Source: Alphaproteobacteria bacterium
Lineage (GTDB): Bacteria > Pseudomonadota > Alphaproteobacteria > UBA828
NCBI GenBank assembly: GCA_965200925.1
Contig: OZ241738.1
Location: 332,052 to 396,051, forward strand
DNA: 64,000 nt
Reading direction: 5' to 3'
How positions within the stretch are numbered: position 1 is the first letter of the stretch; each line of letters opens with the position of its first letter. A model generated the notes under the pieces. It was not told the origin of the DNA. It was given only the letters and a program-made list of their open reading frames with translations, and made no database searches. Position numbers and translations under genes: made by a program. Below are positions 6,001-64,000 of the stretch, piece by piece.

Positions 6001-9000
6001 GTCCCTTGGCCGTTGGCCAGCACCGCCGTCACTGTCGCGCTGCGCCCCGCGCTCCCCTGGTGGATGCTATCGTCCACCGCCGTGACCAACACCGTGTCCG
6101 AGGCCGCCGTGGTTGACCCCGCCGCAATCGTGATCGTCGCGTCCGTTCCCACCGTGTAGGAACCCGAGACCCCCTGCACCGTCACCGTCGAAGGCTCGCT
6201 CGATGGGTGCGACAAGGTGGCCGTCACCGTCGATACCCCGCCGTTCTCCGAGACCGATGTCGGGTTCAGCGACAGCGTCACCCCCGGCGCCGCGTCGTCG
6301 TCCTCCAGCGTCAGCGTCACGTCCGGCGGGGCCGTGACCCCGTTGCCGCCCGCCGCGGTGCCCGAAATCGTCACCGACTTGTTCGGCGAATCCACCGAGT
6401 TGCCGTTCGCCGTCACCGTCACTTCGCCGACGCTCGTCGTCGCCCCGGCCGCGATGGTCAGAGTCGTCCCCGTGCTCAGGGCGAAGTCCGCCGCGACCGC
6501 CCCGCTCCCGGCGGCCGCCCCCACCGTCACCGTCACCGCGGCGCTTGATGGGCCGGAGAGCGTCGCCGTCACCGTCGAAACCCCGCCCGTCTCCGTAATC
6601 GACGAATCGGAGAGCGCCAGCGCGACCGTCGGCAAGGCGTCGTCGTCCTCCAGCGTCAACGTCACGTTCGGCGGCGCCGCGACGCCGTTACCCCCCGCGA
6701 CCGTACCCGAGACCGTCACCGACTTGTCCGGCGAATCCACCGAGTTGCCGTTCGCCGTCACCGTCACCAAGCCCGTGCTGGTGGTCGCGTTGGCCGCGAT
6801 GGTCAGCGTCTTCGCCGTGCTCAAGGCGAAGTCCGCGCCGACCGCGCCGGTTCCGGCGGCCGCCGCCACCGTCACCGTCACCGCAGCGCTCGACGGACCC
6901 GAAAGCGTCGCCGTCACCGTCGCAACCCCGCTCGTCTCCGAAATCGACGAATCGGAGAGCGCCAGCGCCACCGTCGGCAAGGCGTCGTCGTCGGCGATGG
7001 TCAGCGTCCGGGCGACCGGCGGCTGCACGCCCTGGTCGTTGACCGCCGTTCCCGAAACCGTCGCCTGCCGGTTCGGCGCGTCCGTGTCGTTGTCCACCGC
7101 CGCCACCGTCACCGTGCCGCTGCTGGTCGTCGCGCCCGCCGCGATGGTCAACGTGTTCGCGCTCGACAGCGTGTAGTCGCCCGCCGCCGCCCCGGTCGAG
7201 GCCACCGGCGCGACCGACACCGTGATCGTCGTCGCCGCGCTCGACGCCCGGTTCAGCGTCGCCGTCACCGACGCCGTGCTGCCCGTCCCGCTCTCGTCGA
7301 TGGTCGAAGGCGTCAACGCCAGCGTCACCGTCGGCGGACCCTCGTCGTCGCGGATGGTCAGCGTCACCGCCGACGGCGCCGCCGCCCCGTTGCCCCCCGC
7401 CGCCGTCGCCGACACGCGCACCTCGATGTCCGGCTCGTCGGCGGCGTTGTCCTGCGCCGTCACCGTCACCGTGCCCGTGCTGACGGTGGCCCCGGCCGCG
7501 ATGGTGAGCTTCGTCGTGCTCGACAGCGCGAAGTCCCCCGACACCGCGCCCGTCGACGCCACCGGGGCAGCCGACACCGTGAGCGTCACCGCCGCGCTCG
7601 ACTTGCCCGAGAGCGTCGCCGTCACCGTCGAGACACCGCCGTTCTCGCCGACGGTCGCGGGCGTGAGCACCAGCGCCAGCGTCGGCAAGGCGTCGTCGTC
7701 CGTCAGCGTCAGCGTCACGTTCGACGGATTGGCGACGCCGTTGCCGCCCGCCGCGGTTCCCGAGACCGTCACCGACTTGCTGGGCGAATCGACGTCGTTG
7801 CCGTTCGCCGTCACCGTCACCAAGCCCGCGCTCTCCGTCGACCCGGCCGCGATGGTCAGCGTCGTTGCGCCCGACAGGGTGAAGTCCGCGGCGACCGCGC
7901 CGGTCCCCGCGGCCGCAGCCACCGTCACCGTCACAGCAGCGCTCGACGCACCCGACAACCGCGCCGTCACCGTCGCCACCCCGTTCGTCTCCGCAATCGA
8001 CGACGGCGTGAGCGCCAGCGAAACCGTCGGCAGCGTCTCGTCGTCGGTCAGTGTCAACGTCGCGCCGGTCACCGCCCCCGCCCCCTGGCCGTTGGCCAGC
8101 GCCGCCGTCACTGTCGCGCTGCGCCCCGCGCTCCCCTGGTGGATGCTATCGTCCACCGCCGTGACCAACACCGTGTCCGAGGCCGCCGTGGTTGACCCCG
8201 CCGCAATCGTGATCGTCGCGTCCGTTCCCACCGTGTAGGAACCCGAGACCCCCTGCACCGTCACCGTCGAAGGCTCGCTCGATGGGTGCGACAAGGTGGC
8301 CGTCGCCGTCGACACCCCGCCGTTCTCCGAGACCGATGTCGGGTTCAGCGACAGCGTCACCCCCGGCGCCGCGTCGTCGTCCTCCAGCGTCAGCGTCACG
8401 TCCGGCGGGGCCGCGACCCCGTTGCCGCCCGCCGCGGTGCCCGAAATCGTCACCGACTTGTTCGGCGAATCCACCGCGTTACCGTTCGCCCTCACCGTCA
8501 CTTCGCCGACGCTCGTCGTCGCCCCGGCCGCGATCGTCAGCGTCGTCCCCGACTGCGTGAAGTCCGCCGCCACCGCCCCGCTCCCCGCCGCAGCCGCCAC
8601 GGCCACCGTCACCGCCGCGCTCGACTTGCCCGTAAGCGTCGCCGTCACCGTCGAAACCCCGCCCGTCTCCGAAATCGACGAGTCCGAAAGCATCAGCGCA
8701 ACCGTCGGCAGCGTCTCGTCGTCCTCCAGCGTCAACGTCACGTTCGGCGGATTCGCGACGCCATTGCCGCCCGCCGCGGCGCCCGAGACCGTCACCGACT
8801 TGTTCGGCGAATCCACGGCGTTGCCGTTCGCCCTCACCGTCACTTCGCCTGCGCTCGTCGTCGCCCCGGCCGCGATGGTCAGAGTCGTCCCGGATTGCGT
8901 GAAGTCCGCCGCGACCGCCCCGGCCCCCGCAGCCGCAGCCACCGTCACCGTCACCGCTGCGCTCGACGCACCCGACAGCCGCGCTGTCACCGTGGAGATG

Positions 9001-11500
9001 CCGCCCGTCTCCGAAATCGAGGTGGAAGAGAGCGCCAGCGCCACCGTCGGCAAGGCGTCGTCGTCCCCCAGGGTCAGCGTCACGTTCGGCGGCGCCGCCA
9101 CCCCGTTGCCACCCGCCGCGGTTCCCGAGACCGTCACCGACTTGTTCGGCGAATCCACAGCGTTGCCGTTCGCCGTCACCGTCACCAGGCCCGCGCTCGT
9201 CGTCTCCCCGGCCGCGATAGTCAAAGTCTTCGCGCTCGACAGGGTGAAGTCCGCCGCGACCGCCCCGGTCCCGACGGCCGCTCCCACCGTCACCGTCACC
9301 GCCTCGCTCGACTTGCCCGTAAGCGTCGCCGTCACCGTCGAGATGCCCCCCGTCTCCGAAATCGACGAATCGGAGAGCGCCAGCGCCACCGTCGGCAGCG
9401 CCTCGTCGTCCTTCAGCGTCAGCACCGCTCTCGCCGAAGGAGATATAAGGTCAAAGAGGTTGCCGCCCCCGAACGTCCGGGGCCACTCCCTCCTCCCCGG
9501 GTCCCTCGTTAGCCGGAAAGTATAACGCGCGCCCACCATCACCCGACGGTTGCCGCTGTGGACGTCGTTGTCCACCGCGGCGACGGTCACCGCGCCGGCG
9601 CTCACGGTATCCCCCGCCGCGATGGTCAGGGTGTTGGCCGCGCTCCGGCTGTAGTCGCCCGAATGGAAAGCCAACACCCTGATGGTCGTCGGCACGCTCG
9701 ACGGGTGCGAGAGCGCCGCGGTCACCGTCGCCGTGCTGCCCGCGCCGCTTTCGTCGATGGTCGAGGGCGAAAGCGTCAGCTCCACCGTCGGCAAGGCGTC
9801 GTCGTCCTCCAGAATCAGCACCATGAGCCGCGGGTCCGCGACTCCGTTGCCCCCTGCCGCCGCGCCGCGGACCACTATCCGCTTGTGCGACGAATCGACG
9901 TCGTTGCCGTTCGCCGTCACCGTCACTTCGCCAGCGCTCGTCGTCGCCCCGGCCGCTATGGTCAGCGTCGTCCCCGTGCTCAAGGTGAAGTCGCCCGACA
10001 CCGCCCAGGAGCTGCCGGCCGTCACCGTCACCGTCACCGTCACCGCAGCGCTCGACTTGCCCGAAAGCGTCGCCGTCACCGTCGCAATCCCGCCGGTCTC
10101 CGAAATCGACGAATCGGAGAGCGCCAGCGTCGCCGTCGGCAGGGCCTCGTCGTCGGCCAAGGTCAAGGTCGCGTTCGCCGGGTCCGCGACCCCGTTGCCG
10201 CCCGCCGCCGCGCCGGAGACCGTCACCCGCTTGTCCGGCGCGTCCACGTCGTTGTCGCTGGCCGTGATCGTCACCGTCCCGGTGCTCGTCGTGGCGTTCG
10301 CCGCGATGGTCAGCGTCGTGCCCCCGCTCAGGCCGAAGTCGCCCGCCACCGCGCCCGACGCCGCCACCGCCGCCGCCGCGACCGTGACCGTCACCGCCTC
10401 GCTCGACGGGCCGCCCAGCGCCGCGCTCACCGTCGCCACCCCGCCGTTCTCGGCGATCGACGACGACGACAGCACCAGCGAGACCGTGGGCGGGCCGTCG
10501 TCGTCGCGCAGCGTCAGGGTCGCGTCCGGCGGGTCCGCCGCCCCGAGCGTGCCCGACGCCGAACCCTTCACCGTCACCTGCTTGTCCGGCGAATCCATGT
10601 TGTTCGGTTCCGCGGTCACCGTCACCAGGCCCGCACTCGTCGTCTGCCCGGCAGCGACGGTCAGCGTGTTCGCCGTGCTCAGGGTGAAATCGCCGTCCAC
10701 CGCGCCCGTGGACGCCGTCGCCGACACCGCGATCGTCACCGCCTCGGCCGAGGGGTGGCTCAGGGTCGCGGTCACCGTCGCCACGCCGCCCGACTCCGAG
10801 ATCGACGCCGGGGCGAGGGCGAGCGCCGAACTCGGCCGCGAGTCCTCGTCCGCGATGGTCAGGGTCAGGTCCACCGGCGCCGCCACCAGCCCGTAACCGC
10901 CGTCCACCGCCCCGCTCACCGTCACAAACTTGCCCGACGAGTCGATGGCGTCGTCCGTCGCGGTGATCGTCACCGTGCCCGCGCTCGCCTTCCGCCCCGC
11001 GGCGATGGTCAGCGTGTTCGCCGTGCTCAGGCTGAAGTCGCCGTCCACCGCGCCCGTGGACGCCGTCGCCGACACCGTCACCGTGATCGCCTCCCCGGAG
11101 GGAGTGCCGCTCAGGCGCGCCGTCACCGTCGTCGCGTTGCCCGCCCCGCTCTCCCGGATCGTGTACGGGTACGCTATGTACGGGTCCGACAGCATCAGCA
11201 CCAGGATCGGCGTCCCGTCGTCGTCGGTGATCGTCCCCACCCCGGTCGCCGCGCTCCCGAGCACCGCCCCGGAGGGGTTGGACAGCGCGATGCGGATCGT
11301 CTCGTCGGGCTCGTCCAGCGCGTCGCTCGTCACCGTCACCTCGACGGTCTTGCTGGTCTCGGTAGCGGAGAAGGTCAGCGTGCCCCCGGAGAACGCCGTG
11401 TAGTCGGCGCCGGAGGCCGCCGTGCCCGGGTCCGCGGCCGCCGCCCAGTCCACCGTCACCTGCCGGCCCGGCGCCCGGTTCAGGGCCACCACGAAGGGCA
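1..11500 (-). repeat. Tandem Calx-beta-like coding repeats (~345-360 nt units) within adhesin copy A
   Basis: The plus-strand artefact ORFs show the periodicity. Adjacent units are near-identical at the DNA level. Confidence 0.8.
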
Positions 11501-11660
11501 GCTTCGGCACCTCCGTCTGGCCCGGCCCCCCTTCCGCCACGCTCGGCGAGGAGATGGAGAAGACGATGTCGCCGTCGGTCGCCGCCAGCGCGTGGTGCGC
11601 CGACGCCGCGGCGAACGCCGCCAGCACCGCCGCCAGAGAAATCCGCGCGACCGTCTTCAT
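1..11660 (-). CDS. Giant Calx-beta-repeat autotransporter adhesin, copy A, 5' part only (the 3' end runs off the window start)
   Basis: Homologous to the 35485..56550 gene. The start codon ATG at 11660 (plus-strand cat at 11658-11660) precedes the signal peptide MKTVARISLAAVLAAFAAASAHHALA. No minus-strand stop appears in this frame, since no minus ORF is listed across 1-9450. The repeated motif is TLTLxDDDxLPTVALxLSxxSIxETGG...VTVTANGNxVDSPNKSVTVSG. Confidence 0.75.
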   Translation of the reverse strand, partial: MKTVARISLAAVLAAFAAASAHHALAATDGDIVFSISSPSVAEGGPGQTEVPKLPFVVALNRAPGRQVTVDWAAAADPGTAASGADYTAFSGGTLTFSATETSKTVEVTVTSDALDEPDETIRIALSNPSGAVLGSAATGVGTITDDDGTPILVLMLSDPYIAYPYTIRESGAGNATTVTARLSGTPSGEAITVTVSATASTGAVDGDFSLSTANTLTIAAGRKASAGTVTITATDDAIDSSGKFVTVSGAVDGGYGLVAAPVDLTLTIADEDSRPSSALALAPASISESGGVATVTATLSHPSAEAVTIAVSATASTGAVDGDFTLSTANTLTVAAGQTTSAGLVTVTAEPNNMDSPDKQVTVKGSASGTLGAADPPDATLTLRDDDGPPTVSLVLSSSSIAENGGVATVSAALGGPSSEAVTVTVAAAAVAASGAVAGDFGLSGGTTLTIAANATTSTGTVTITASDNDVDAPDKRVTVSGAAAGGNGVADPANATLTLADDEALPTATLALSDSSISETGGIATVTATLSGKSSAAVTVTVTVTAGSSWAVSGDFTLSTGTTLTIAAGATTSAGEVTVTANGNDVDSSHKRIVVRGAAAGGNGVADPRLMVLILEDDDALPTVELTLSPSTIDESGAGSTATVTAALSHPSSVPTTIRVLAFHSGDYSRSAANTLTIAAGDTVSAGAVTVAAVDNDVHSGNRRVMVGARYTFRLTRDPGRREWPRTFGGGNLFDLISPSARAVLTLKDDEALPTVALALSDSSISETGGISTVTATLTGKSSEAVTVTVGAAVGTGAVAADFTLSSAKTLTIAAGETTSAGLVTVTANGNAVDSPNKSVTVSGTAAGGNGVAAPPNVTLTLGDDDALPTVALALSSTSISETGGISTVTARLSGASSAAVTVTVAAAAGAGAVAADFTQSGTTLTIAAGATTSAGEVTVRANGNAVDSPNKSVTVSGAAAGGNGVANPPNVTLTLEDDETLPTVALMLSDSSISETGGVSTVTATLTGKSSAAVTVAVAAAAGSGAVAADFTQSGTTLTIAAGATTSVGEVTVRANGNAVDSPNKSVTISGTAAGGNGVAAPPDVTLTLEDDDAAPGVTLSLNPTSVSENGGVSTATATLSHPSSEPSTVTVQGVSGSYTVGTDATITIAAGSTTAASDTVLVTAVDDSIHQGSAGRSATVTAALANGQGAGAVTGATLTLTDDETLPTVSLALTPSSIAETNGVATVTARLSGASSAAVTVTVAAAAGTGAVAADFTLSGATTLTIAAGSTESAGLVTVTANGNDVDSPSKSVTVSGTAAGGNGVANPSNVTLTLTDDDALPTLALVLTPATVGENGGVSTVTATLSGKSSAAVTLTVSAAPVASTGAVSGDFALSSTTKLTIAAGATVSTGTVTVTAQDNAADEPDIEVRVSATAAGGNGAAAPSAVTLTIRDDEGPPTVTLALTPSTIDESGTGSTASVTATLNRASSAATTITVSVAPVASTGAAAGDYTLSSANTLTIAAGATTSSGTVTVAAVDNDTDAPNRQATVSGTAVNDQGVQPPVARTLTIADDDALPTVALALSDSSISETSGVATVTATLSGPSSAAVTVTVAAAAGTGAVGADFALSTAKTLTIAANATTSTGLVTVTANGNSVDSPDKSVTVSGTVAGGNGVAAPPNVTLTLEDDDALPTVALALSDSSITETGGVSTVTATLSGPSSAAVTVTVGAAAGSGAVAADFALSTGTTLTIAAGATTSVGEVTVTANGNSVDSPNKSVTISGTAAGGNGVTAPPDVTLTLEDDDAAPGVTLSLNPTSVSENGGVSTVTATLSHPSSEPSTVTVQGVSGSYTVGTDATITIAAGSTTAASDTVLVTAVDDSIHQGSAGRSATVTAVLANGQGTGAVTGATLTLTDDETLPMAALVLSDASISETGGVSTVTATLTGKSSEAVTVTVAAAAGAGAVAADFTLSTAKTLTIAAGSTTSAGLVTVTANGNDVDSPNKSVTVSGTAAGGNGVAVPPDVTLTLTDDDTLPTVALVLMPSTVGENGGVSTVTATLSGKSSAAVTLTVSAAPVASTGAVSGDFALSSTTKLTIAAGATVSTGTVTVTANDNAADEPDIEVRVSATAAGGNGAAAPSGVTLTIRDDEGPPTVTLVLTPSTIDESGTGSTAAVTATLNRVSSAATTITVSVAPVASTGAVAADFTLSSAATLTIAAGATTSSGTVTVAAVDDDTDAPNRQATVSGTAVNDQGVQQPVARTLTIADDDALPTVALALSDSSISETSGVSTVTATLSGPSSAAVTVTVAAAAGTGAVGADFALSTAKTLTIAANATTSTGLVTVTANGNSVDSPDKSVTVSGTVAGGNGVAAPPNVTLTLEDDDALPTVALALSDSSISETGGVSTVTATLTGPSSAAVTVTVAAAAGTDAVAADFTLSSVKTLTIAAGETTSAGLVTVTANGNAVDSPNKSVTVSGTSAGGNGVVNPPNVTLTLEDDETLPTVALALSDSSISETGGVSTVTATLTGPSSAAVTVMVGAAAGAGAVAADFALSTGTTLTFAAGSTTSAGLVTVTANGNDVDSPNKSVTVSGAAAGGNGVAAPPNVTLTLTDDDALPTVALALSDSSISETSGVATVTAMLSGPSSAAVTVTVGAAAGSGAVSGDFTLSTATTLTIAAGSTTSAGLVTVTAVGNSVDSPNKSVTVSGTAAGGNGVAAPPNVTLTLEDDDALPTVALALSDTSISETGGISTVTATLSGPSSEAVTVTVAAAAGTGAVAADFTLSSAKTLTIAASATTSTGLVTVTAVGNAVDSPDKSVTVSGTAAGGNSVAAPPDVTLTLEDDDALPTVALALSDPSISETGGVSTVTATLTGKSSEAVTITVGAAAGSGAVGADFALSTAKTLTIAAGETTSAGLVTVTANGNTVDSPNKSVTVSGTAVGGNGVAAPPNVTLTLTDDDALPTVALALSASSISETGGVSTVTATLSGASSEAVTVTVGAAAGSGAVGADFALSTAKTLTIAAGETTSAGLVTVTANGNTVDSPNKSVTVSGAAMGGNGVANPPNVTLTLEDDETLPTVALALSASSISETGGVSTVTATLSGASSEAVTVTVAAAAGTGAVSGDFTLSTATTLTIAAGSTESTGLVTVRANGNAVDSPNKSVTVSGAAAGGNNVANPPNVTLTLEDDDALPTVALALSASSISETSGVATVTATLTGASSAAVTVTVAAAAGTGAVSGDFTLSTATTLTIAAGSTESAGLVTVTANGNTVDSPNKSVTVTGTAAGGNGVATPPNVTLTLEDDETLPTVALALSASSISETSGVATVTATLSGASSAAVTVTVGAAAGTGAVAADFDLSSATTLTISAGATTSAGLVTVTAVGNAVDSPNKSVTVSGAAAGGNGVATPPNVTLTLEDDDALPTVALVLTPPTVGENGGISTVTATLTGPSSEAVTVTVAAAAGSGAVAADFDLSAAKTLTIAANATTSTGLVTVTAVGNAVDSPDKSVTVSGTAAGGNGVAAPPDVTLTLEDDDALPTVALALSDSSITETGGVATVTATLTGKSSAAVTVTVGAAAGTGAVAADFTLSSAKTLTIAAGSTTSAGLVTVRANGNAVDSPDKSVTVSGTAAGGNGVANPSNVTLTLTDDETLPTVALALSSTSISETGGVATVTATLTGKSSAAVTVTVGAAAGTGAVAADFTLSSAKTLTIAANATISTGLVTVRANGNAVDSPDKSVTVSGTAAGGNGVAASPDVTLTLTDDETLPTVALALSSTSISETGGVATVTATLTGKSSAAVTVTVGAAAGTGAVAADFTLSSAKTLTIAANATTSAGLVTVRANGNAVDSPNKSVTVSGTAAGGNGVANPSNVTLTLTDDETLPTVALVLVPATVGENGGVSTVT

Positions 11661-11750
11661 CGCACCGCCGATACCGCCCGACCGCACCCCCAAATCCATC
11701 GATGGCAACCGCCGACAGGGTTTTCAGTGGCCGGTGATCGGTGCTGGCAG

Positions 11751-14700
11751 TCAGAAGCGCACCTTGATGGTCACCCCGCCGCCGTAGTCGCGCGCCCCCG
11801 TCGCCCAGCGCGCCGCCCCTTGCAGCGCGTAGCGGCCGCCGTCCCATTCGACCGCGCCGCCGGCCTCGACGAGCACCCGCGTCGCCTCCGCCTTCGACGA
11901 CAGACCCACGTCCGACACCTTCACCGCAGTCTCCCGCGAGAACGCGCGCTCGACGTCGACCGAGCCGAACAACCGGCTCCCGCCCTCCGACGCCTCCACC
12001 CTCACGCCCGCGCGGCCCGTCGCGGCCCGGCCCTTGTCCAGCGACACGCGGGCTTCCACCGCGTCCGTGAAGTCGTCCATCCCCACCCGCGAATACGAGA
12101 GCCGCGCCCGCGGCGTCGCCGTCAGCGCCCCCAGCGGACCCGAACCCAGCGCCACGCGGCGGCCCGCCTCCACGCCAACCGCATGGCCGAAGGCGCCGAC
12201 GTCCCGCTTCAGCGACCCGCGCTGCCCGGACTCCAGGGCCACGTCGTACCACGTCGCCGATACCCCGCCGTCCACGTACACGCCGTCGGACAACCGCCAC
12301 GACACCGACGCCCCGACGCCGTTCCCCGCAACATCGATCCCGCCGTCGTTCCCCGACACCTCCGCCGAGGCGCGGCGGTGATGCGCCGACAGGCTGGCCA
12401 CGCCTGCCTCCAGCGGAAAGTCCACGCCCGTCTCCACCCTGTAGCGGCGCTGCGTCCACGCCAGACGGCCTCCGGACGTCGACGTCGACCGCTCCGTCTC
12501 GCGCGAACCGCCCGACGTCTCGATCCGCGCCCACACCCCGTTCGGCGAGCGCGGCGCCGCCATCCGGTCATGGAACCCCGACGTCCCGTTCAGACCCAGA
12601 AGCACCGACGGCAGCGCCTCGTACACCCGCACGCGGGGCGCGTACTCTCTCACCAACCTCCCGTCGTGGCCGATTCCCACGTCGAAAGGCCCCAACGGCA
12701 CCGAACGCGCCGAACCGGGCGCCCCGAGGTCGTCGATCCTGCGCCCGTCCGCAAAGACGTACCGCACTTCCGGCGGCGCGCCGTCGGCGTCCCGCATCGT
12801 GCCTTGAATCCGGTTGAGGAGTTGCTCCGCCGTCTCCCCCGGGGCTTGCCGGATCGACACCACCAGTTCGCCGCTGGCGCTGCGGATGGCCTCGCCATCG
12901 ACGCCCGTCACGCGGCCGGCCTCGCCGATCGCCACCGTGCCGCCGCGATCCAGCAGCACGCGACCGGCCGTGCCCGCCACCCGCACCGTGCTCTCGGTCG
13001 CTACCCGAACCGTCCCGGTGACTGCACCACCCGGGGCCACCGACACCGCGTGCTCGCCGCTGCCCAGGGCCAGGATGTCGCCCATGACCACGCCCGCCAC
13101 CGTCACGGTCAGGTCCCCGGTCTCGCTGCGGATGCCGACTCCCTCCACGCCCGTCACGCGACCGGAAGCGTCCACCGTCACCGTGCCGCCCCGGTCCAGA
13201 TGCACCCGGCCGACGACGCCCGCCACCCGCACCGTGCTCGCCGCCAGACGAACCGTTCCCGTCACGCTGCCGCCGCGCGCCACCGTCACCATGTGATCGC
13301 CGTCGCCAAGGCCCAGGACATCGCCCGTCACCATGCCGGCCACGGTCACGTCCAGGTCGCCCGCTTCGCTGCGCAACGCTTCGGCCGCGCCTTCGACGCC
13401 CGTGAGCCTGCCGGTCGCGGTCACCGTTACCGTGGCCCCGCCGCTGTAGAGCAGCCGCCCGATGCGGCCCGCCACCGTCAGCGGGCCGATCGGGTCATAT
13501 GCCGTGCCCGTGACGACGCCGCCTTCCGGAACCGAAAGCGTCAGCGTGCCGCCGCTCGGTGCGCGCAGGTCGCCCGCCACCCGTCCGGCCACGGTCACGT
13601 CCAGATTGCCCGCTTCGCTGCGCAGCGCCTCGGTCCTGCCGTCGACATCGACGCCGGTGAGCGCGCCCGTCGCGGCCACCGTCACCGTGGCGCCGTCGGT
13701 GTAGAGCAGCCGCCCGATGCTGCCTGCCACCGTCAGCGGCCCGGCGGGGTCGCGGACCGTCCCCGTGACGACGCCGCCTTCCGGAACCGAAAGCGTCAGC
13801 GCGCCGCCATCGACGCGGACGTCGCCCCTGACCGTCCCCGAAACGGTGGCCGTCAGATCGCCGCCATCGGCGAGGACGCCCACGCCCGACGTCGCGCCGG
13901 TCTCGCCCGTCGCGCCGACGGTGAGCCGCCCGCCGCCGGCCAAGTGGACGCCCGCGCCGGTTCCGCCCGTTACCGCACCGTTCACGGTCACGCTCTGGGC
14001 GTGGAGGTTCCCCTCCCCGGCGCCCGCGCCGCGGACGTAGAGGCCGTTCGCGCCGCCCGTGACGCGTGCGCCCTCGGCAACCGTCACCGCGATGGCGCCG
14101 TTCCTGTCATGCGGGACGGCGTAGAGCGCCTCCACGCCGTTGCCCTCGGCGGAAATCGAGCCACCGGTCACGTCCACCTGGATATCGCCGGCGTTGTAGC
14201 TCGCCGCGCGCTGCCGCACCCCGTCCTTCCAGTCGTCCGTGTAGGTGGCGCCGGAAAGAGCATCCAGCGCCGCCTCCAGACCGCTGCCCGTCAGGACGGC
14301 TTCCAGCACCGTGCGCTCGGCCGCCGAGAGCTTCTCCTGCTCCGCCAGCGCCGCCTGCTGCCGCTCCGTTCGAGCCGCCGCGGCGATGGCGAGGATCGCC
14401 GGGTCGCGGTCGCCCTGGCGGATGAAGGTCGCCATCCCGGTGTGGGACTGCACCACGGCGCGGATGCCGGCGCGGGAAAGGCCCAGGATCTCCGAGGCCG
14501 CGATCTCCCCCGCCCGGTTCGCCGTCGCCGCCCTGGCGGCGTCGCCGGGCGACTCGGCGATGCGCTTCCTCTGGAGATTCCGCGCCTCCGCCTTCCAGTC
14601 GGCGTCGTAAGCGGCGGGGAGCGCCGCAAGCGCCGTATCCAGCGCGTCCGAATCCCCCGACGTAATCGCCGAGAGGACGGCCTGCTCCACCGCCGACAGC

Positions 14701-16520
14701 GTCTCGTCGGCGCCCGCGATCCGGCCCCGGATGAAGGCCTCCGTCACCGAGGCGCCGACCGTGACCGTTCCGCTCGAGGCGACGTGGATCATCGGCGCGG
14801 TCCGGGCGGCATCGTCCGCCGTCTGCGCACCGTCGCCGAATGTGTGGCCGCTCGACCGCTCGGCCCAGGCGAGAACGCCGGCCTCCCGTGCCTCGACCTT
14901 GCCCCCGGGCGTGACCACGATGCGCCCCGCCGCGCTCGCGTCGTTCGTCGCCCGCGCATCCATTCCGATGGCGAACGGCGCCTCGATCGCCGTCCCCGCG
15001 CCCGTCGTTATCCCGACGGAGCCGAGGCCCGCCTGAAGCCCGAGCATCCCCGCCGTGTTCAGCCCCTCCACGGTGATGGCGCTGTCACCCGCCGCATCGA
15101 TGGCGATCGCCGCCGTACTCGCGGCGTTGCCTATATTGCCGACGACGCCGTAGGTCTCGTCGCCGGCCGTGGAGATGGCGGCGTCGTCCAGATCGACGTC
15201 GAGGCTGCCCGTGCCGGCGTGCCGGGCGTAGATGCCGTAGCTCGCGTAGCCCGTCGTGGTGACGGTGACGCCATCCGCGTAGATCGAGAGCGCCGCCTCG
15301 CTGGCGGCGTTGAGGTCGGCGGCGATGACGCCGTAGGAGTCGTCGCCCGTCGTCACGATGCGGCCGCCCGTCACGTCGATGGCGATCGCCCCCCCGCCGG
15401 TACCGGTATAGCCGAAGACGCCGTAGGAGCCGTCGCCCGTCGTGGAGATGGCGACGCCTTCCAGGTCGATGTCGGTTCCGCCCGCGCCGCGGTTGTCGGC
15501 GAGCACGGCGTGGGCGGAATCGTTCGCCGTAGTGACCGATCCGCCTCGCAGATCGAAGGCGATTCCGCCCGCGCCTTCTTGCCTGGCATAGACGCCGTTG
15601 GCCCGCGCTGTCGTGGAGATGGTGACGGCCGTCGAGTAGATGGAGAGCGACGCGGTGCTCGCGGAGCCCGCGACATGGCCGAAGATGCCTTGTGCGCCGC
15701 GACCCGCCGTCGAGAGGGAGCCGCGCGTCACCGAGACGGTGAGCGCCTCGCCTACGGCGTTGCTGATCAGGCCGTAGACGCCGTGGGAGTTCGAGCCCTC
15801 CGTGGTGACGTCGACGTCCGTCACGTCGATGGAGACCGCCCCCCCGCTGTTTCCTATGATGGCGCCGCCGATGCCGAAGGCGCCGTCGCCCACCGTCGAT
15901 ATGGAGCCGCTTTTCACATCGACGTCGACTCCGGTCCCGCCCGCACCCGTGTGCCGGCCGTAGACGCCATGGCCGCTGCCCTTCGTGGAGACGGCCACGT
16001 TCGCCAAATCGATGTCGATTCCGCCCGTGCCCTGATGCTGGGCCCAGACGCCTGCGCCCCCCGCGGTCGCGTCCGTCGCGGAGACCGTGCCGGCCGTGAC
16101 GGAGACGGTGATCGCTGCCGCGTTCGCGGAGTTCTCGATCAGACCAACAATGCCGTGATTGGCCGACGTGACGTCGACACCCTCTTTCAGAACGATGGAT
16201 ACACCGCCGGCGCCCCTTTGGTAGGCGAAGACGCCGTAGCCGCCCTGGCCCGTTGCGGAGAGGGCGCCGCCCGCCACTTCGACGTCGATTCCGCCCGTGC
16301 CCGTATGATGGGCGTAGACTGCGTATTCGTTGGCGACCGCCGTCGCGATGGCCGGGTTCGTGAGGTCGATGTCGATGACGGTCGCATCACCTTGCTGGCA
16401 GACGACCCGGTCGTTCACCCCCGGCGTGTTGCTGCACACGGCGGCGGCCTGCGCCTCCGCCGCGCCGAGCAGGAAGGCCAGCCCGAAGAGAAGCGCGCCA
16501 ATTCGCGCCCGGGTGTTCAT
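11751..16520 (-). CDS. Type Va autotransporter with glycine-rich beta-helical passenger repeats (1589 aa), copy A
   Basis: The Sec signal peptide is MNTRARIGALLFGLAFLLGAAEAQAAA. Passenger repeats read GGxGVxxxxxGAGG(I/T)D(I/V)DL. The C-terminal ~280 aa alternate hydrophobic residues and end in ...GGVTIKVRF, a classic autotransporter beta-domain terminus. The RBS AGGGAA lies 8 nt upstream of the ATG. Confidence 0.75.
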   Translation of the reverse strand: MNTRARIGALLFGLAFLLGAAEAQAAAVCSNTPGVNDRVVCQQGDATVIDIDLTNPAIATAVANEYAVYAHHTGTGGIDVEVAGGALSATGQGGYGVFAYQRGAGGVSIVLKEGVDVTSANHGIVGLIENSANAAAITVSVTAGTVSATDATAGGAGVWAQHQGTGGIDIDLANVAVSTKGSGHGVYGRHTGAGGTGVDVDVKSGSISTVGDGAFGIGGAIIGNSGGAVSIDVTDVDVTTEGSNSHGVYGLISNAVGEALTVSVTRGSLSTAGRGAQGIFGHVAGSASTASLSIYSTAVTISTTARANGVYARQEGAGGIAFDLRGGSVTTANDSAHAVLADNRGAGGTDIDLEGVAISTTGDGSYGVFGYTGTGGGAIAIDVTGGRIVTTGDDSYGVIAADLNAASEAALSIYADGVTVTTTGYASYGIYARHAGTGSLDVDLDDAAISTAGDETYGVVGNIGNAASTAAIAIDAAGDSAITVEGLNTAGMLGLQAGLGSVGITTGAGTAIEAPFAIGMDARATNDASAAGRIVVTPGGKVEAREAGVLAWAERSSGHTFGDGAQTADDAARTAPMIHVASSGTVTVGASVTEAFIRGRIAGADETLSAVEQAVLSAITSGDSDALDTALAALPAAYDADWKAEARNLQRKRIAESPGDAARAATANRAGEIAASEILGLSRAGIRAVVQSHTGMATFIRQGDRDPAILAIAAAARTERQQAALAEQEKLSAAERTVLEAVLTGSGLEAALDALSGATYTDDWKDGVRQRAASYNAGDIQVDVTGGSISAEGNGVEALYAVPHDRNGAIAVTVAEGARVTGGANGLYVRGAGAGEGNLHAQSVTVNGAVTGGTGAGVHLAGGGRLTVGATGETGATSGVGVLADGGDLTATVSGTVRGDVRVDGGALTLSVPEGGVVTGTVRDPAGPLTVAGSIGRLLYTDGATVTVAATGALTGVDVDGRTEALRSEAGNLDVTVAGRVAGDLRAPSGGTLTLSVPEGGVVTGTAYDPIGPLTVAGRIGRLLYSGGATVTVTATGRLTGVEGAAEALRSEAGDLDVTVAGMVTGDVLGLGDGDHMVTVARGGSVTGTVRLAASTVRVAGVVGRVHLDRGGTVTVDASGRVTGVEGVGIRSETGDLTVTVAGVVMGDILALGSGEHAVSVAPGGAVTGTVRVATESTVRVAGTAGRVLLDRGGTVAIGEAGRVTGVDGEAIRSASGELVVSIRQAPGETAEQLLNRIQGTMRDADGAPPEVRYVFADGRRIDDLGAPGSARSVPLGPFDVGIGHDGRLVREYAPRVRVYEALPSVLLGLNGTSGFHDRMAAPRSPNGVWARIETSGGSRETERSTSTSGGRLAWTQRRYRVETGVDFPLEAGVASLSAHHRRASAEVSGNDGGIDVAGNGVGASVSWRLSDGVYVDGGVSATWYDVALESGQRGSLKRDVGAFGHAVGVEAGRRVALGSGPLGALTATPRARLSYSRVGMDDFTDAVEARVSLDKGRAATGRAGVRVEASEGGSRLFGSVDVERAFSRETAVKVSDVGLSSKAEATRVLVEAGGAVEWDGGRYALQGAARWATGARDYGGGVTIKVRF

Positions 16521-16543
16521 GAGGCGTTCCCTGGCGGCCGTGC

Positions 16544-16565
16544 GGGGGGGGGGGGGGGGGGGGGG
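16544..16565. promoter_or_regulatory. Homopolymeric G tract (22 G; poly-C on the coding strand) 24 nt upstream of the autotransporter-2 start codon, a candidate phase-variation switch
   Basis: Seen directly in the sequence. The equivalent tract in copy B (61437-61461) is about 25 G with an adjacent A-to-G change. This length difference fuses an upstream ORF to the gene in copy B. Confidence 0.7.
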
Positions 16566-16854
16566 AGATTCAAGTGGGTACAGACCGGACAGACGGATGA
16601 CAGGTCATGGGATTTGGTCGGATGTTTCACGGCCTCTGCTCCCGAATGAAGACGCTCGTCGCGGCAGCGGGCGCTCCCGAATGAGATTACAAGGCACAGT
16701 CTACTATTCTCGTCCGAAGATAACAGGCCGGCCGCTCGGCAGTCGCATGACACGTAAGTGCGCGCCCCTACCATAAGGGATGCATCGCCCGCCGCCCGTT
16801 GCCGGAGAGCGTCACGGACGCGATTGATATGACTTTGGTCAGGAAACGACATCA

Positions 16855-17421
16855 TCAGTTACCTGCCGCTTTCAGCACCCGGGCCTGAGCCTTGCGGGCT
16901 TGCTGCACCATGCTGTCCACCTCCGCGTCGCGTCCTTCGCCGATCATTTCATCGCGTTTCAGCGTGGCGAGGAAGTAAGCGTGGAGAAAGGTCCGCTCAA
17001 TCAAGGATGTGAGGCCGGTGGGCATCGTGGGAGCCTGGGCTCCGGATTCGCTCCCGAAGGTCGTGGGCATTCGGTCGCGGATCAATTCGGCAGCATCGGT
17101 CCGGTCGTCGGAACGGCCGTGAATCGGCTTTCCGGCGTGCCCATCGGGCACGACAGCGGAGATGAAGTCGCGGATTTCGGAGACCTCCTGCTCGCGTCCG
17201 GACAAGATCAGGTCGCGCGCGAGGACCTGCGCGGCGAACAGCGAGGCCCTTGCGACCTGGATCTCTGCCTCGGTGCGCGGCCATTCGCGGCGGTCGAGGG
17301 CCTCCATGGCGAGCTCCACGACGAGCCGGTTCGCCGAAACGTCCCGCTCCCTTGCTGCGTTTTCGATGCGATTCCATTGCCCGGGCGTGACCCGGACGTT
17401 CTTTTGCAGCGTCCGTGCCAT
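16855..17421 (-). CDS. Ribbon-helix-helix (CopG/MobC-like) domain protein, ~188 aa
   Basis: The N-terminus MARTLQKNVRVTPGQWNRIENAARERDVSANRLVVELAMEAL fits an RHH beta-alpha-alpha pattern. The internal Met at 17421 was chosen over the ORF-track start at 17481. The C-terminal two-thirds has no recognisable domain. Confidence 0.45.
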   Translation of the reverse strand: MARTLQKNVRVTPGQWNRIENAARERDVSANRLVVELAMEALDRREWPRTEAEIQVARASLFAAQVLARDLILSGREQEVSEIRDFISAVVPDGHAGKPIHGRSDDRTDAAELIRDRMPTTFGSESGAQAPTMPTGLTSLIERTFLHAYFLATLKRDEMIGEGRDAEVDSMVQQARKAQARVLKAAGN

Positions 17422-17745: not shown

Positions 17746-18026
17746 CCAACAACACCCGGGCGGCATTTGTCGTCGTTTGCGCGGGAAACGGCATGACAAG
17801 CGCGCGCTCGGTTATGAGGGCACCTTGGTGCGTTGGGTGTGAGGGTGGAACGGCTTCCATGCCGTGAGAGTACCACAGGATGCGGAGAAAGGGGATTGGG
17901 GCCCCGGGTCGGCGAGGGGAGCGGGCCGGTGCGGGCGCGACGGTCGGTCGCGCGGTCGGTGGCGAGGTGAGGAAGGGAAGGGCCGATCCCTGTTGCGGGG
18001 ACCGGCCCAGGAGGTTGGGATGGTGT

Positions 18027-18950
18027 TCAGGCTGCGACGCGGTGGACGGGGATGCCGATCTGTCGCGCCTTGTCGATGAGGTTCTCGGTGATGCCGGAGC
18101 CGGGGAAGGCGACGAGGCCCTTGGGCAGGAGGTTGAGGAGGTCGTCGTTGCGTCGGAAGGGAGCGGCGCGTCCGTGTCTGTCCCAGTCGGGCTTGCAGAC
18201 GATCTGGTGGACTTCGTTGCGCTCGGCCCAGGAGGCGGCGATCCTCTCGGCACCGGGTCCGCCGCCGTGGAGGAGGATCATGTCGGCGTGCCGGTCCTTG
18301 ACGCGATCGAGGACGGTCCAGATGGCGTCGGCGTCCTCGGCTTCCTTGCCGCCGGCGACGGCGACGAGGGTTCCGTCGGGGAGGTGTGCGCGTGTCTCGC
18401 GGTCCTTGCGGGCGCGGATGAAGTCGCGTGCGTCGATGGCGGCGGAGGTGAGCCTGCCGGTGTGGCTGGTGTGAGAGCCGTGTCGGGGCCGCCACTGCTT
18501 GCCGGTCTCGGCGGTGTAGGCCTCGGCGGCGAAGTCTCGGAGCTTCTCGAAGGCGTCGCGCCGGTCGCCGAGGTTGTGTGCGCGCTCGGTGAGGCGTTCG
18601 AGCTGCCAGGCCTTGACCTCGGTTCCGTCCTGTGCGCGTCCGAGTTCTCGCATCTCGGGAGCGATGCCGTCGATGGCGCGGTCGAGGCGCTGGACCTGAG
18701 CGTGGAAGGTGTTGACGAAGCCCCAGAGGAGGCACTCGCGCTCGTCGGCGAGCTGGTAGCCGTCGGGTGCGATGTCCTGGGCGAGGATGTGGAAGGCCTG
18801 CTGGGTGCCTGCGATGGCCCCGTCCTTGTCCCAGACGGGCCGGTTGTCGGGTTCGTCGGGATCGGGTGTTGCGCCGTAGAGCCTGGCGGTGTCGCAGGCT
18901 GCGGCGGTGGGGGAGGCGGCGTATCCGGTATCGGTGTCGATGGTGTTCAT
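18027..18950 (-). CDS. SLOG-family (DUF2493/YspA-like) domain protein, ~307 aa
   Basis: The C-terminal region ILLHGGGPGAERIAASWAERNEVHQIVCKPDWDRHGRAAPFRRNDDLL resembles the DUF2493 signature. A strong RBS AGGAGATCGTC precedes the ATG at 18950. The N-terminal 180 aa is unassigned. Confidence 0.55.
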   Translation of the reverse strand: MNTIDTDTGYAASPTAAACDTARLYGATPDPDEPDNRPVWDKDGAIAGTQQAFHILAQDIAPDGYQLADERECLLWGFVNTFHAQVQRLDRAIDGIAPEMRELGRAQDGTEVKAWQLERLTERAHNLGDRRDAFEKLRDFAAEAYTAETGKQWRPRHGSHTSHTGRLTSAAIDARDFIRARKDRETRAHLPDGTLVAVAGGKEAEDADAIWTVLDRVKDRHADMILLHGGGPGAERIAASWAERNEVHQIVCKPDWDRHGRAAPFRRNDDLLNLLPKGLVAFPGSGITENLIDKARQIGIPVHRVAA

Positions 18951-19035
18951 GACGATCTCCTGATGTTGGTGTTGCATCCTTCGGGGCGTTGGTTCCCCGT
19001 CGTGATGTTCGTTTGGGACACGCGCGCGCAACGGA

Positions 19036-19200
19036 GCCACAACGACCGCAATGCCAGCGCCGGGGAGCCGTCCGAGTGGTGCGGGCGTACAAACGACCGG
19101 AAACCCTTGGCGCGCGCGCTTGCGCGCTTAGAGTTTCCGCGGAGTGCGGAGCCACGGTCGGACGGCTTCCCGGCGCTCCCTGGCATTGCGAGTCGTTGCC
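19036..19200. promoter_or_regulatory. Large imperfect inverted repeat (~30-bp arms, ~95-nt loop) upstream of the SLOG gene
   Basis: The left arm CAACGACCGCAATGCCAGCGCCGGGGAGCC (19041-19069) pairs with the reverse complement of the right arm GGCTTCCCGGCGCTCCCTGGCATTGCGAGTCGTTG (19165-19199). Confidence 0.4.
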
Positions 19201-20362: not shown

Positions 20363-21349
20363 TCAATGCGCGCGGTCGCGGTCCGGCGTGTGGAACAGGG
20401 GCGCGATCCTGGCGGCGAGTGCTTGCGCGCCGAATGCGATCAGGTCGTCGTTGAAGTCGCCGCGCTCGGGGACGATGACGTCGGTGGGGATGCTCAGGTT
20501 GCGGCAGCGCCGCCGGAGGCGTTGGGCGGCGCGTGCGCCCTCGGTGTCGTTGTCGTGGGCGATGACGAGGCGGGCGAGGCCGGAAGGGGGCGCGAAGGCA
20601 CCGAGGCTTCCGGCGGACAGCGCGGCGGCGGCGGGGATGGCGGGAACGGCGGTGACCAGGGAGAGCACGGTCTCGATGCCCTCGCCGACGAGCAGGGTGT
20701 CGTGACCGGGCGCGCCGAAGCGGACGGCACGGCCATGGACGTGGCCGAGGGCCTTGCGCGGGCTTGCGACGGCGGCCTTGGCGGGTGCGTTCGGATCGAG
20801 CCAGGTGCGATGAATACCGTCGATGGCGCCGTCGTCGCCGTCGACGGCGGCGACGAGCGCCGGGAGGCGGCGGAAGCCGTTGCGGTCGCGGTAGTTGAGA
20901 GCGGGATGGAAGCGGAGGGCGGGGAAGCGGCAGCGGCGGATGGCGCGGGTCCGGAGGTAGGCCTCGGCATGGCTGCCGTCGATGGCGCGGCAGGAGCGCC
21001 AGAGGCGGCGTGCGGCCTGCACCCGGTCGTAGGCGTCGCTGCCATGACCGTCGGGGACCGCCGGCATGGCGAGGAAGGCGCGCGCTTCGTCGAGGGCGGG
21101 CTTGAGGGAGGCGGCACCGATGGCGGTGCGGATGAGGTCGAGCAGGTCGCCATGCTCACCGGTGGCGGCGTCGGTCCACTTGCCGGGGACACCGGGAGGG
21201 GCAAGACGGACGAAGAGGGATCGGCCCCTGGCGCCGAGGGCGTCGCCGCAGGTCCAGTAGCGTCCCTGCTTGCGACCGTTGGGAAGGTAGCGCCGGCAGA
21301 CCTGCTCGGCGCGCCCGGCGAGGGCGGCGGCGATGTCGGTGGCGTTCAT
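20363..21349 (-). CDS. Toprim-domain primase-like protein (P4-alpha/TraC-like N-terminal Zn-binding region plus toprim), ~328 aa
   Basis: The start is MNATDIAAALAGRAEQVCRRYLPNGRKQGRYWTCGD, with RBS GGAGGG 7 nt upstream. The toprim glutamate sits in LLVGEGIETVLS and the DxD motif in AHDNDTEGARAA. The upstream 257 aa of the listed 591-aa ORF are Pro/Arg-rich GC artefact. Confidence 0.65.
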   Translation of the reverse strand: MNATDIAAALAGRAEQVCRRYLPNGRKQGRYWTCGDALGARGRSLFVRLAPPGVPGKWTDAATGEHGDLLDLIRTAIGAASLKPALDEARAFLAMPAVPDGHGSDAYDRVQAARRLWRSCRAIDGSHAEAYLRTRAIRRCRFPALRFHPALNYRDRNGFRRLPALVAAVDGDDGAIDGIHRTWLDPNAPAKAAVASPRKALGHVHGRAVRFGAPGHDTLLVGEGIETVLSLVTAVPAIPAAAALSAGSLGAFAPPSGLARLVIAHDNDTEGARAAQRLRRRCRNLSIPTDVIVPERGDFNDDLIAFGAQALAARIAPLFHTPDRDRAH

Positions 21350-21480
21350 GGCGGCTCCCTCCGGGCAGTGCGGGACGCACCGTCCCGGCCCGCCTCGCGC
21401 CTCTCGCCGGTGCGCGGCGGGCGGGCGAGGCGCGAAGCGCAAGCGCCCCTCCTCGGGCGGAGCGGAGCCCGTGGAGCGGA

Positions 21481-22041
21481 CTATCCGGCGAGCGTCCGGA
21501 AGGTCGCGGAGACGCGCGTGGTCCGCCGTCGGGCATTGGCCGCACGGTCGATGCCGTGCATCCAGTCCCGGCGTGCGGCGCCGCGCAGGACCAGCGCGGA
21601 GCGGCGGGGAAGCACGGCGAACTCGTCGCAGGGCAGGCCGTCGCGGCGATAGGGCCGGACGCTGCGGCGCCGGAACTGCATCCGCCATTCGTCGCCGAGC
21701 GAGAGCGAGACGATCACCGGGCCGAACGCCGCGTGATCGGCGTGCATGCCGATCCCCTGTCCGGGGCGGTACTCGTTCACGATGCACTGCTGGGGCGGCA
21801 CGCCGTCGAACAGGGGCAGGAGGCGCCGGGCCATGGCCTCGGCCCAGCGCGGGAACGCCGCTGCGGGAGCGCGCCGGTTCGGATCGTGGTTCCGGTAGTC
21901 GTAGCGGAAGCCGTACTGCTGCACCCTGCGTCCGAGCTCGCCGGACCAGGGCGCCTCGCCGATGCGGTAGAGGATGCGGCGCTCCTCGGCCTCGGTGATG
22001 AAGTCGGGGACGATCGCCGCCCCCTGCCCGAAGATGCTCAT
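21481..22041 (-). CDS. alkB: AlkB-family 2OG-Fe(II) dioxygenase (186 aa)
   Basis: The sequence QQCIVNEYRPGQGIGMHADHAAFGPVIVSLSLGDEWRMQF carries the HxD...H iron-binding motif of AlkB. RBS GGGAGGG precedes the ATG at 22041. The rest of the listed 420-aa ORF is GC artefact. Confidence 0.75.
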   Translation of the reverse strand: MSIFGQGAAIVPDFITEAEERRILYRIGEAPWSGELGRRVQQYGFRYDYRNHDPNRRAPAAAFPRWAEAMARRLLPLFDGVPPQQCIVNEYRPGQGIGMHADHAAFGPVIVSLSLGDEWRMQFRRRSVRPYRRDGLPCDEFAVLPRRSALVLRGAARRDWMHGIDRAANARRRTTRVSATFRTLAG

Positions 22042-22116
22042 GATGCCCTCCCATGCGAACTCGTCGCACTCGACGCACCGCTTCGCTCTGCCTCTCGCCC
22101 GCCGTCGTTGGAGGCG

Positions 22117-22165
22117 GTGGCCTCCGGTCGGGGGGCAAAAAAGGGGCCGACGCCGCGAGGCGCCG
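22117..22165 (-). terminator. Rho-independent terminator downstream of ssb
   Basis: On the minus strand the sequence reads GGGCCGGCGCCTCGCGGCGTCGGCCCC followed by TTTTTTTG. Confidence 0.45.
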
Positions 22166-61413: not shown

Positions 61414-61436
61414 GAGGCGTTCCCTGGCGGCCGTGC

Positions 61437-61461
61437 GGGGGGGGGGGGGGGGGGGGGGGAG
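61437..61461. promoter_or_regulatory. Homopolymeric G tract (~25 G) upstream of autotransporter-2 copy B
   Basis: Seen in the sequence. It is longer than the 22-G tract in copy A. Confidence 0.7.
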
Positions 61462-61748
61462 ATTCAAGTGGGTACAGACCGGACAGACGGATGACAGGTC
61501 ATGGGATTTGGTCGGATGTTTCACGGCCTCTGCTCCCGAATGAAGACGCTCGTCGCGGCAGCGGGCGCTCCCGAATGAGATTACAAGGCACAGTCTACTA
61601 TTCTCGTCCGAAGATAACAGGCCGGCCGCTCGGCAGTCGCATGACACGTAAGTGCGCGCCCCTACCATAAGGGATGCATCGCCCGCCGCCCGTTGCCGGA
61701 GAGCGTCACGGACGCGATTGATATGACTTTGGTCAGGAAACGACATCA

Positions 61749-63972: not shown

Positions 63973-64000
63973 GACGATCTCCTGATGTTGGTGTTGCATC

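Follow-up and report, generated by a model that had tools for sequence, protein, structure and literature searches.

A duplicated autotransporter/adhesin module

The window, i.e. the whole 64-kb stretch of DNA that was analyzed (70% G+C), contains two copies of a module of ∼26 kb, both on the minus strand (1-16520 and 35485-61413). Each copy is composed of an autotransporter gene and a giant adhesin-like gene. The first autotransporter gene (copy 1, 11751-16520) begins with a canonical ATG at 16520-16518 and encodes a protein of 1589 aa. The second (copy 2, 56641-61413), with its canonical ATG at 61413-61411, encodes a protein of 1590 aa. The N terminus displays a predicted signal peptide (MNTRARIGALLFGLAFLLGAAEAQA/AAVCS), which was judged by eye and not by a predictor, and the C terminus (...VTIKVRF) ends with an aromatic residue. 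In the copy 1 product, a Pfam β-domain (PF03797) was identified between residues 1344 and 1566 (E = 1.2e-20). With a PF03797 β-barrel, an aromatic C-terminal residue, and a Sec signal peptide, this protein is predicted to be a classical (type Va) autotransporter.

In both copies, a giant ORF begins ∼45-50 nt past the stop codon of the autotransporter gene. In copy 2, it extends on the minus strand from 56598 to 35485 and encodes a protein of ∼7000 aa (7037-aa ORF), whereas in copy 1 the same gene is cut by the start of the window (1-11708, minus strand). This giant gene consists of ∼60 tandem units of 345 nt (115 aa), containing Calx-beta and LapA-type domains. The autotransporter and giant genes are also neighbors in related contigs, and they are probably part of one operon.

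The two modules are ∼98% identical over 7 kb around the site described below, and 95.7-98% identical wherever they can be aligned. A gene encoding a YAcAr/SLOG-domain protein (18027-19040, minus strand) is duplicated together with the module (17957-18978 vs 62979-64000, 99.2% match). Between the two copies, also on the minus strand, there are genes encoding a Toprim/DUF7146 primase-like protein (20363-22138), a phage-type integrase (26989-28245), and an AAA_21/AbiEii-like ATPase (29622-30710), which together look like an integrated mobile element.

A long uninterrupted poly-C tract precedes each autotransporter gene

Upstream of copy 1 there is a perfect G22 run on the plus strand (16544-16565), i.e. 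C22 on the coding minus strand. Its context on the coding strand (TTGAAT-CT-C22-GCACGGCCGCCAGGGAACGCCTC-ATG) agrees letter for letter with what an earlier note on this DNA had described. The corresponding run upstream of copy 2 is G23 on the plus strand (61437-61459), i.e. C23 on the coding strand. The earlier note was therefore right that the two tracts are of unequal length, but its count of 22 vs ∼25 has to be corrected to 22 vs 23, and the end of the second run moves from 61461 to 61459. A homopolymer scan found no other run of 8 nt or longer in the window. Moreover, all of the 23 G12 words that were found lie inside the two tracts, when 0.13 would be expected from dinucleotide-preserving shuffles. 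The C22 and C23 runs are thus a real and non-random sequence feature. We considered as a contingency locus a perfect repeat beyond the slippage-prone length, which is about 8 or more for G/C runs, and both tracts are uninterrupted over 22 and 23 nt, respectively.

Over ∼1.35 kb (15708-17064), one extra G is the sole difference between the two copies, which outside this interval differ by substitutions at ∼1.8%. Taken by itself, a difference of 1 nt in a homopolymer longer than 20 nt could plausibly be a HiFi consensus error. In both copies, the tract ends 23 nt before the canonical ATG of the autotransporter gene. This 23-nt leader, GCACGGCCGCCAGGGAACGCCTC, is the same in copy 1 (16521-16543, minus strand) and copy 2 (61414-61436, minus strand), and contains an SD-like AGGGAA motif (16527-16532 in copy 1). 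Across diverged loci whose proteins are just ∼55-60% identical, the leader is almost invariant (GCACGGCCGCCAGGGAGCGCCTC) and holds an SD of sequence AGGGAR.

Tract length differs between near-identical sequences

Ten loci sharing the window-type leader have tracts of C13, C14, C14, C15, C19, C20, C20, C21, C22, and C23. Among these, three pairs of near-identical sequences, all of them long-read consensus and some of low coverage, show tract differences of 6-9 nt. Locus L002 has C14 vs C22/23 in the window, with a single mismatch in 850 nt of flanking sequence. Loci L026 and L029 have C13 and C20, respectively, with no mismatches in 1300 nt. Loci L025 and L027 have C14 and C20, respectively, with three mismatches and two gap columns in 1300 nt, and the C20 of L027 comes from a 52x circular genome. 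The short lengths (13-15) are mainly found on low-coverage contigs (2.75-10.6x), and a technical contribution to them is conceivable. A tract of C21 is nevertheless found on a 2.4x contig (L024), and a tract of C19 on a 9.7x contig, i.e. length does not simply track coverage. As judged from these related assemblies, the tract appears to be hypervariable, and we consider it likely that its length varies biologically. The suggestion of the earlier note that the tract is unstable in length is thereby strengthened, since pairs separated by 0-3 substitutions in 850-1300 nt of flanking sequence differ by 6-9 nt in the tract.

Several other rearrangements were observed in the vicinity of the tract. 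In L023 (1140-1478), the sequence upstream of C15 is unrelated to the other loci, whereas what follows the tract is almost the same as in the window gene, which suggests a recombination breakpoint at the tract. The same locus contains a second copy of GCACGGCCGCC just upstream, and its leader has lost one G (CCAGGAAC). A direct repeat, CTCATTCGGGAGC, is present twice, 38 nt apart, in the window (∼16640-16690, minus strand) and in L025, L027, and L028. L024, L026, and L029 lack the intervening segment, which is consistent with an inter-repeat deletion. Finally, L002 contains an 18-nt tandem duplication (ATCAATCGCGTCCGTGAC), and L028 a 33-nt tandem duplication further upstream.

A putative upstream start codon opens a reading frame into the tract

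Visual inspection of the sequence preceding the tract revealed a putative second translation start. In copy 1, an SD-like purine block, GGGAGCAGAGG (16633-16643, minus strand), lies 2 nt ahead of a GTG (16630-16628), forming a leader in which GGGAGCAGAGGCC-GTG is followed by 21 codons and then by C22. With C22, this upstream ORF (16517-16630, minus strand), which would encode VKHPTKSHDLSSVCPVCTHLNL-P7-ARPPGNAS*, is out of frame with the autotransporter gene, and its TGA stop codon (16519-16517) overlaps the canonical ATG (ATGA). In copy 2, the equivalent purine block lies at 61527-61537 (minus strand) and the GTG at 61524-61522. With C23, the frame is in register with the gene, which generates an N-terminal extension (61414-61524, minus strand) in which MKHPTKSHDLSSVCPVCTHLNL-P7-RTAARERL is fused to the autotransporter. 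The predicted peptide around the end of the proline run reads ...HLNLPPPPPPPR/TAAR..., and the frame is open further back, to an ATG at 61749. As the earlier note had proposed, the difference in length thus alters the upstream frame, the ORF starting with the GTG at 61524 being in frame with the gene at C23 and the equivalent ORF being out of frame at C22. The tract lies 23 nt before the ATG and inside the frame that follows the SD and GTG, and C22 and C23 differ in frame, so an effect on expression is predicted.

This effect is already visible in public gene calls. Two database proteins match the window copies exactly. Both are encoded on one 3.55-Mb contig, and they are annotated with 1589 aa (P0087) and 1627 aa (P0086, copy 2) because tract length decides which start is picked, P0086 being called from the upstream GTG and reading through the tract. 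Such read-through is frequent in database gene calls (e.g. ...LAPPPPRTAARERLM...), and many members of the family display an N-terminal '...PPPP...'. This serves as an annotation warning, since gene callers shift starts with tract length.

The arrangement SD-start-tract-leader-ATG can be aligned across seven loci, and the position of the upstream purine block is kept in both homologous and non-homologous leaders of the family. In L007, for example, the leader reads GGAGGAAAGAAGCCC-ATG-AAACGCCCGACCATTCGTCTCGCTT-C12. All of the repeat-bearing leaders that were examined have an SD-like block and an ATG/GTG 7-22 codons before the repeat, with a frame open into it. An SD core is present at positions -16 to -4 of 13/13 upstream starts, which were picked by eye, compared with 10.6% when every ATG/GTG of this DNA is counted. 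When ∼2-3 candidate starts are allowed per locus, the chance of finding an SD is ∼0.25 per locus, and it is unlikely that an SD and an upstream start would occur by chance in 5-8 independent leaders. The peptide encoded upstream shows no sign of conservation, as most changes are non-synonymous and L008 contains a 1-nt indel.

We also looked for RNA features in this region. RNA folding predicts that in the window-type leader the upstream SD is engaged in base pairing. A length-dependent RNA-structure switch was considered and rejected, since folding of the leader with 0-26 C's gave about the same MFE and the same accessibility of the main SD/AUG from C11 to C26. No RNA family was found by Rfam, either in the whole window (gathering threshold) or in the leader (E ≤ 1).

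Frame states a, b, and c are each represented among the assemblies. In state a, the upstream frame is fused in frame to the autotransporter (M(K/E)RPT...-Pro(n)-RTAARERL-M...), which is the case for window copy 2, L002, L024, L001, L007, L015, L030, and the octamer loci L011 and L016. In state b, the upstream frame ends either shortly ahead of the canonical start or on a TGA overlapping it (ATGA/GTGA), as in window copy 1, L025, L027, L029, and L013. In state c, the upstream frame continues past the canonical start, in a different register, for at least 60 codons, as in L026, L028, L006, L008, and L012. The in-frame state shows no significant enrichment (8 of the 17 loci first tallied, vs 1/3 expected). 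This is compatible with random sampling of a switching locus, but also with frame neutrality, and it speaks neither for nor against a use of the upstream start.

The canonical ATG/GTG is preceded by an SD of its own and followed by an entire signal peptide, and it is the start used by the repeat-less loci L003 and L004. An out-of-frame tract therefore need not silence the autotransporter gene. In NalP/PilC/Opa-type loci, out-of-frame lengths abolish the protein for want of an alternative start. Here such a start is available, and its retention argues against a simple ON/OFF truncation switch of the NalP type.

Different perfect repeats occupy the same 5' site in the gene family

A search of species-representative genomes with an N-terminal profile identified 19 loci of this gene family. 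We found C11 or longer within ∼250 nt upstream of the gene in seven of these loci, perfect (CGACTCAC)n arrays in three, (GCCGA)16.6+ in one, and G11 in one. Pure tracts precede distant paralogs/orthologs whose proteins are 55-61% identical, with C11 in L001, C12 in L007, C13 in L030, C14 in L015, C18 in L006, C19 in L012, and C26 in L008, so that tracts range from C11 to C26 across the family. The octamer arrays, each upstream of an autotransporter paralog, consist of 13.6 copies in L011 (2313-2421), 16.6 copies in L013 (2288-2420), and 35.9 copies in L016 (2156-2442). The first two belong to two paralogs in one genome and the third to another genome, and each array is preceded by an SD and an ATG reading into the repeat. 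The (GCCGA)16.6+ array (L014, 1-83) is also upstream of an autotransporter paralog. The presence of different perfect repeats at the same 5' site in one surface-protein family is a hallmark of contingency loci.

The relatives all come from metagenome-assembled genomes (MAGs), labeled Alphaproteobacteria, Gammaproteobacteria, Nitrospirales, 'bacterium', or 'uncultured candidatus Porisulfidus'. By these labels, L003, L004, L006, L010, and L015 are from Alphaproteobacteria, L005, L007, L008, and L012 from Gammaproteobacteria, L009 and L021 from Nitrospirales, and L017 from Ca. Porisulfidus. The family, which is recognizable by the N-terminal motif AAVCSNTPG, is thus found in MAGs of very different lineages, often with several paralogs per genome. 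This spread over lineages suggests exchange within one habitat. The host bacteria are uncultured and probably sponge-associated, the style of the records and the contig names being like those of the HiFi/metaMDBG sponge metagenome assemblies that Aquatic Symbiosis Genomics genome notes describe. When JGI metagenomes were scanned with a DNA pattern combining tract and leader, there were no matches, and a protein-profile scan of the same metagenomes identified one distant locus, which has no repeat.

Two further observations concern the 5' end of these genes. Conservation is much higher in the leader (GCACGGCCGCCAGGGAGCGCCTC) and the signal-peptide region than in the passenger domain (window 16521-16543, L001, L007, and L008). 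As this holds across MAGs labeled as different classes, either the 5' ends may have undergone gene conversion or the family may have been transferred horizontally. In L008 (2266-2500, P0008), a complete SD-start-C26-leader-ATG module is followed by a decayed signal peptide and then by a second N terminus (…SARARIGALLFG…), an arrangement that looks like a duplicated or fossil 5' cassette.

A three-state translational switch is the favored interpretation

We propose that the C22/C23 runs are hypermutable contingency tracts that act on translation through three frame states, a reading drawn from sequence to which we assign a probability of about 0.6. In this model, slipped-strand mispairing would alter the length of the tract, which would sit in the transcribed leader, within a short frame running from an SD and a GTG/ATG 7-22 codons upstream. 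A change in length would shift the upstream frame relative to the canonical start 23 nt downstream and, because the tract is inside a frame that begins with a conserved SD and start, length would set one of three frame relations. In the first state (C23, copy 2), an in-frame fusion would provide the pre-protein with a poly-proline N-terminal extension. In the second (C22, copy 1), the upstream frame would stop on the TGA overlapping the canonical ATG (ATGA), permitting coupled re-initiation. In the third, the upstream frame would overrun the canonical start out of frame, probably occluding it. The switch would act on translation of the autotransporter and, via polarity, may reach the downstream giant adhesin gene. 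This implies that the upstream start is used, that the three states differ in expression, and that switching takes place inside populations, in which case the system would be a modulating upstream-ORF/extension switch.

A broader reading, which we put forward tentatively and consider possible rather than probable, is that the three-state translational switch is a module that arose several times on a single autotransporter family, and that this family is shared among unrelated sponge-microbiome bacteria, probably by horizontal transfer. Its parts would be (i) the upstream SD and start, (ii) a hypermutable repeat that can be C(n), (CGACTCAC)n, or (GCCGA)n, and (iii) the canonical start with its ATGA/GTGA overlap. 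Wherever the repeat is poly-C, the upstream ORF encodes poly-proline, and EF-P-dependent stalling could be a second control layer. The bacteria concerned would be those whose MAGs are labeled Alpha- and Gammaproteobacteria, Nitrospirales, and Ca. Porisulfidus.

Alternative explanations

The alternative that survives best is that the repeat is real and mutable but has no on/off role, being either a neutral slippage-prone remnant that gene conversion has spread over paralog 5' ends or an element with a length-independent function, such as a recombination hotspot, a template-strand G-quadruplex, an RNA-polymerase slippage site, or a poly-proline stalling leader. This would account for the roughly equal frequency of the three frames among assemblies, although an even distribution is also what a randomly sampled contingency locus would be expected to show. 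It would also be in line with the retention of the canonical start and its own SD, with the mosaic flanks and their breakpoints at the tract (L023; L024 vs L026 vs L025), and with the constancy of predicted leader RNA structure and SD accessibility over tract lengths. However, the tracts are pure even though the flanking coding sequence has diverged to 55-60% identity, which speaks for slippage and selection that are still ongoing, and not for decay; what a decayed tract looks like is exemplified by P0024 (PPSP), which is one case. Furthermore, three repeat types at the same position, each after an SD and a start, are hard to explain without a frame-dependent function. We therefore regard this alternative as unlikely.

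Slightly less probable is a promoter switch of the Bordetella fim or Neisseria opc/porA type, in which tract length would set the spacing of promoter elements or of an activator, thereby altering transcription. The tract is 23-45 nt before the ATG, and the hexamers that abut it, TTGAAT in the window and TTGACC in L024-L029, are -35-like. These hexamers are limited to window-type leaders, however, and are absent from the homologous leaders of L001, L006, L007, and L008, i.e. no conserved element abuts the tract. No -10-like hexamer was found in the 23 nt between tract and ATG, which are GC-rich and hold the SD AGGGAA, so that a -10 box, a transcription start, and a leader could not all be accommodated. 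A scan for sigma-70 promoters and terminators (16400-17000) found nothing on the gene strand, a result that speaks against a promoter at the tract but that did not pinpoint the real promoter either. The octamer arrays of 109-287 nt (L011, L013, and L016) cannot be promoter spacers. Moreover, an upstream SD and start would have no role in a spacer model, yet they recur in unrelated leaders, including those of the octamer loci, and their conservation in a position from which they read into the tract points to a translational, reading-frame mechanism. The earlier note, which saw here a slipped-strand phase-variation switch and likened it to Bordetella fim promoters and Neisseria opa/opc, thus remains useful in its first part, since near-identical pairs, family-wide pure tracts, and other repeats all speak for a contingency tract on a surface-protein gene. 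The promoter analogy (fim, opc) is not supported, considering that there is no room for a -10 box, that TTGAAT is not conserved, and that there is an upstream SD and start; the opa analogy is nearer, as are pilC and NalP. In short, the tract is probably hypermutable, a switch of the promoter type is unlikely, and one of the translational frame type is more likely. A possible promoter upstream of the leader is suggested by a -10-like hexamer, TAGACT (16698-16703, minus strand), in a block conserved among the window, L024-L029, and L001. A candidate sigma-54 site was rejected, as its GG-N10-GC motif, identified by eye, is found in L001 only and is not conserved.

Least probable of all, in our view, is that the tract is real but its length differences are sequencing/assembly artifacts and there is no switch: long G/C homopolymers are error-prone in PacBio HiFi/metaMDBG consensus, the related records look long-read metagenomic (contig names like ctg22250_52x_c; OZ accessions), Aquatic Symbiosis Genomics sponge genome notes describe HiFi and metaMDBG, 22 vs 23 is a 1-nt difference inside the expected error, and the shortest tracts are mainly on the contigs of 2.75-10.6x, but HiFi homopolymer errors are typically 1-2 nt, which is exceeded by differences of 6-9 nt at 0-3 flank mismatches, length does not follow coverage in the C21 and C19 contigs mentioned above, and artifacts fail to explain the pure tracts and other perfect repeats at the 5' ends of the family in many genomes.

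Implications

Repeat slippage as a means of phase variation has mostly been associated with host-adapted pathogens and animal commensals. If the three-state translational switch is confirmed, the same strategy would be used by uncultured high-G+C bacteria apparently living in marine sponges, where its targets would be a large autotransporter and, probably, the giant LapA-like adhesin encoded downstream. Such a finding would point to strong, fluctuating selection acting on the surface proteins of symbionts (e.g. host phagocytosis, phage, or attachment vs release), and the read-level distribution of tract lengths would become a marker for the population dynamics of unculturable symbionts. The literature that was searched contains no report of sponge symbionts undergoing phase variation. 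Different repeat types have converged on one 5' position of one gene family. The modular reading, if true, would be the first evidence of sponge symbionts varying surface adhesins by contingency loci.

Comparison with known systems

The closest known systems appear to be NalP and MspA of Neisseria meningitidis. These phase-variable autotransporters have a coding poly-C of 6-15 C (NalP) or 6-14 C (MspA), are ON only at 7/10/13 or 6/9/12 C, and differ in tract length between closely related strains (PMC3723659). The locus described here similarly encodes a predicted type Va autotransporter with a poly-C on the coding strand near the 5' end, and length modulo 3 decides whether the upstream frame continues into the protein. 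In contrast to NalP and MspA, the tract is longer (11-26), and a second, canonical start follows it, equipped with a separate SD and an entire signal peptide. Rather than a truncation, the out-of-frame condition here would be an upstream ORF that ends on ATGA or overruns the canonical start. The hosts also differ, being uncultured environmental or symbiotic bacteria with 70% G+C.

In Neisseria pilC (poly-G) and opa ((CTCTT)n), the repeat is in the region encoding the N-terminal leader and exerts translational control through the reading frame. The present locus resembles them in that its repeat lies where the N-terminal leader of a surface protein would be encoded, with control that would be exerted via the reading frame. 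However, the repeat in pilC and opa is in the sole signal peptide, whereas here it would be in an optional extension before a self-sufficient signal peptide.

The C-stretches in the promoters of Bordetella fim2, fim3, and fimX act on transcription and reach C19 in B. bronchiseptica fim3 (PMC1891110). There too, a long poly-C precedes a surface-structure gene in a high-G+C proteobacterium and is polymorphic in length between strains (PMC1891110), but here no -10 box fits between tract and ATG, and an SD and a start lie before the tract. The autotransporter gene bapC of Bordetella pertussis has long C and G tracts, with C14 in Tohama I, and is possibly phase-variable (PMC1891110). Its tracts, unlike the one described here, are internal to the coding sequence.

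In Lav of Haemophilus influenzae and in AutA/AutB of Neisseria, GCAA and AAGC repeats switch autotransporter genes on and off (PMC9022572, PMC5118866). These are paralleled here by the non-homopolymer relatives, (CGACTCAC)n and (GCCGA)n, whose units are 8 and 5 nt, with up to 36 copies, and which are ahead of the canonical start and not in the mature coding region. Taken together, the features that set this locus apart from those of the known kind are its unusually long tracts, the retained downstream start, and its uncultured, apparently sponge-associated hosts.
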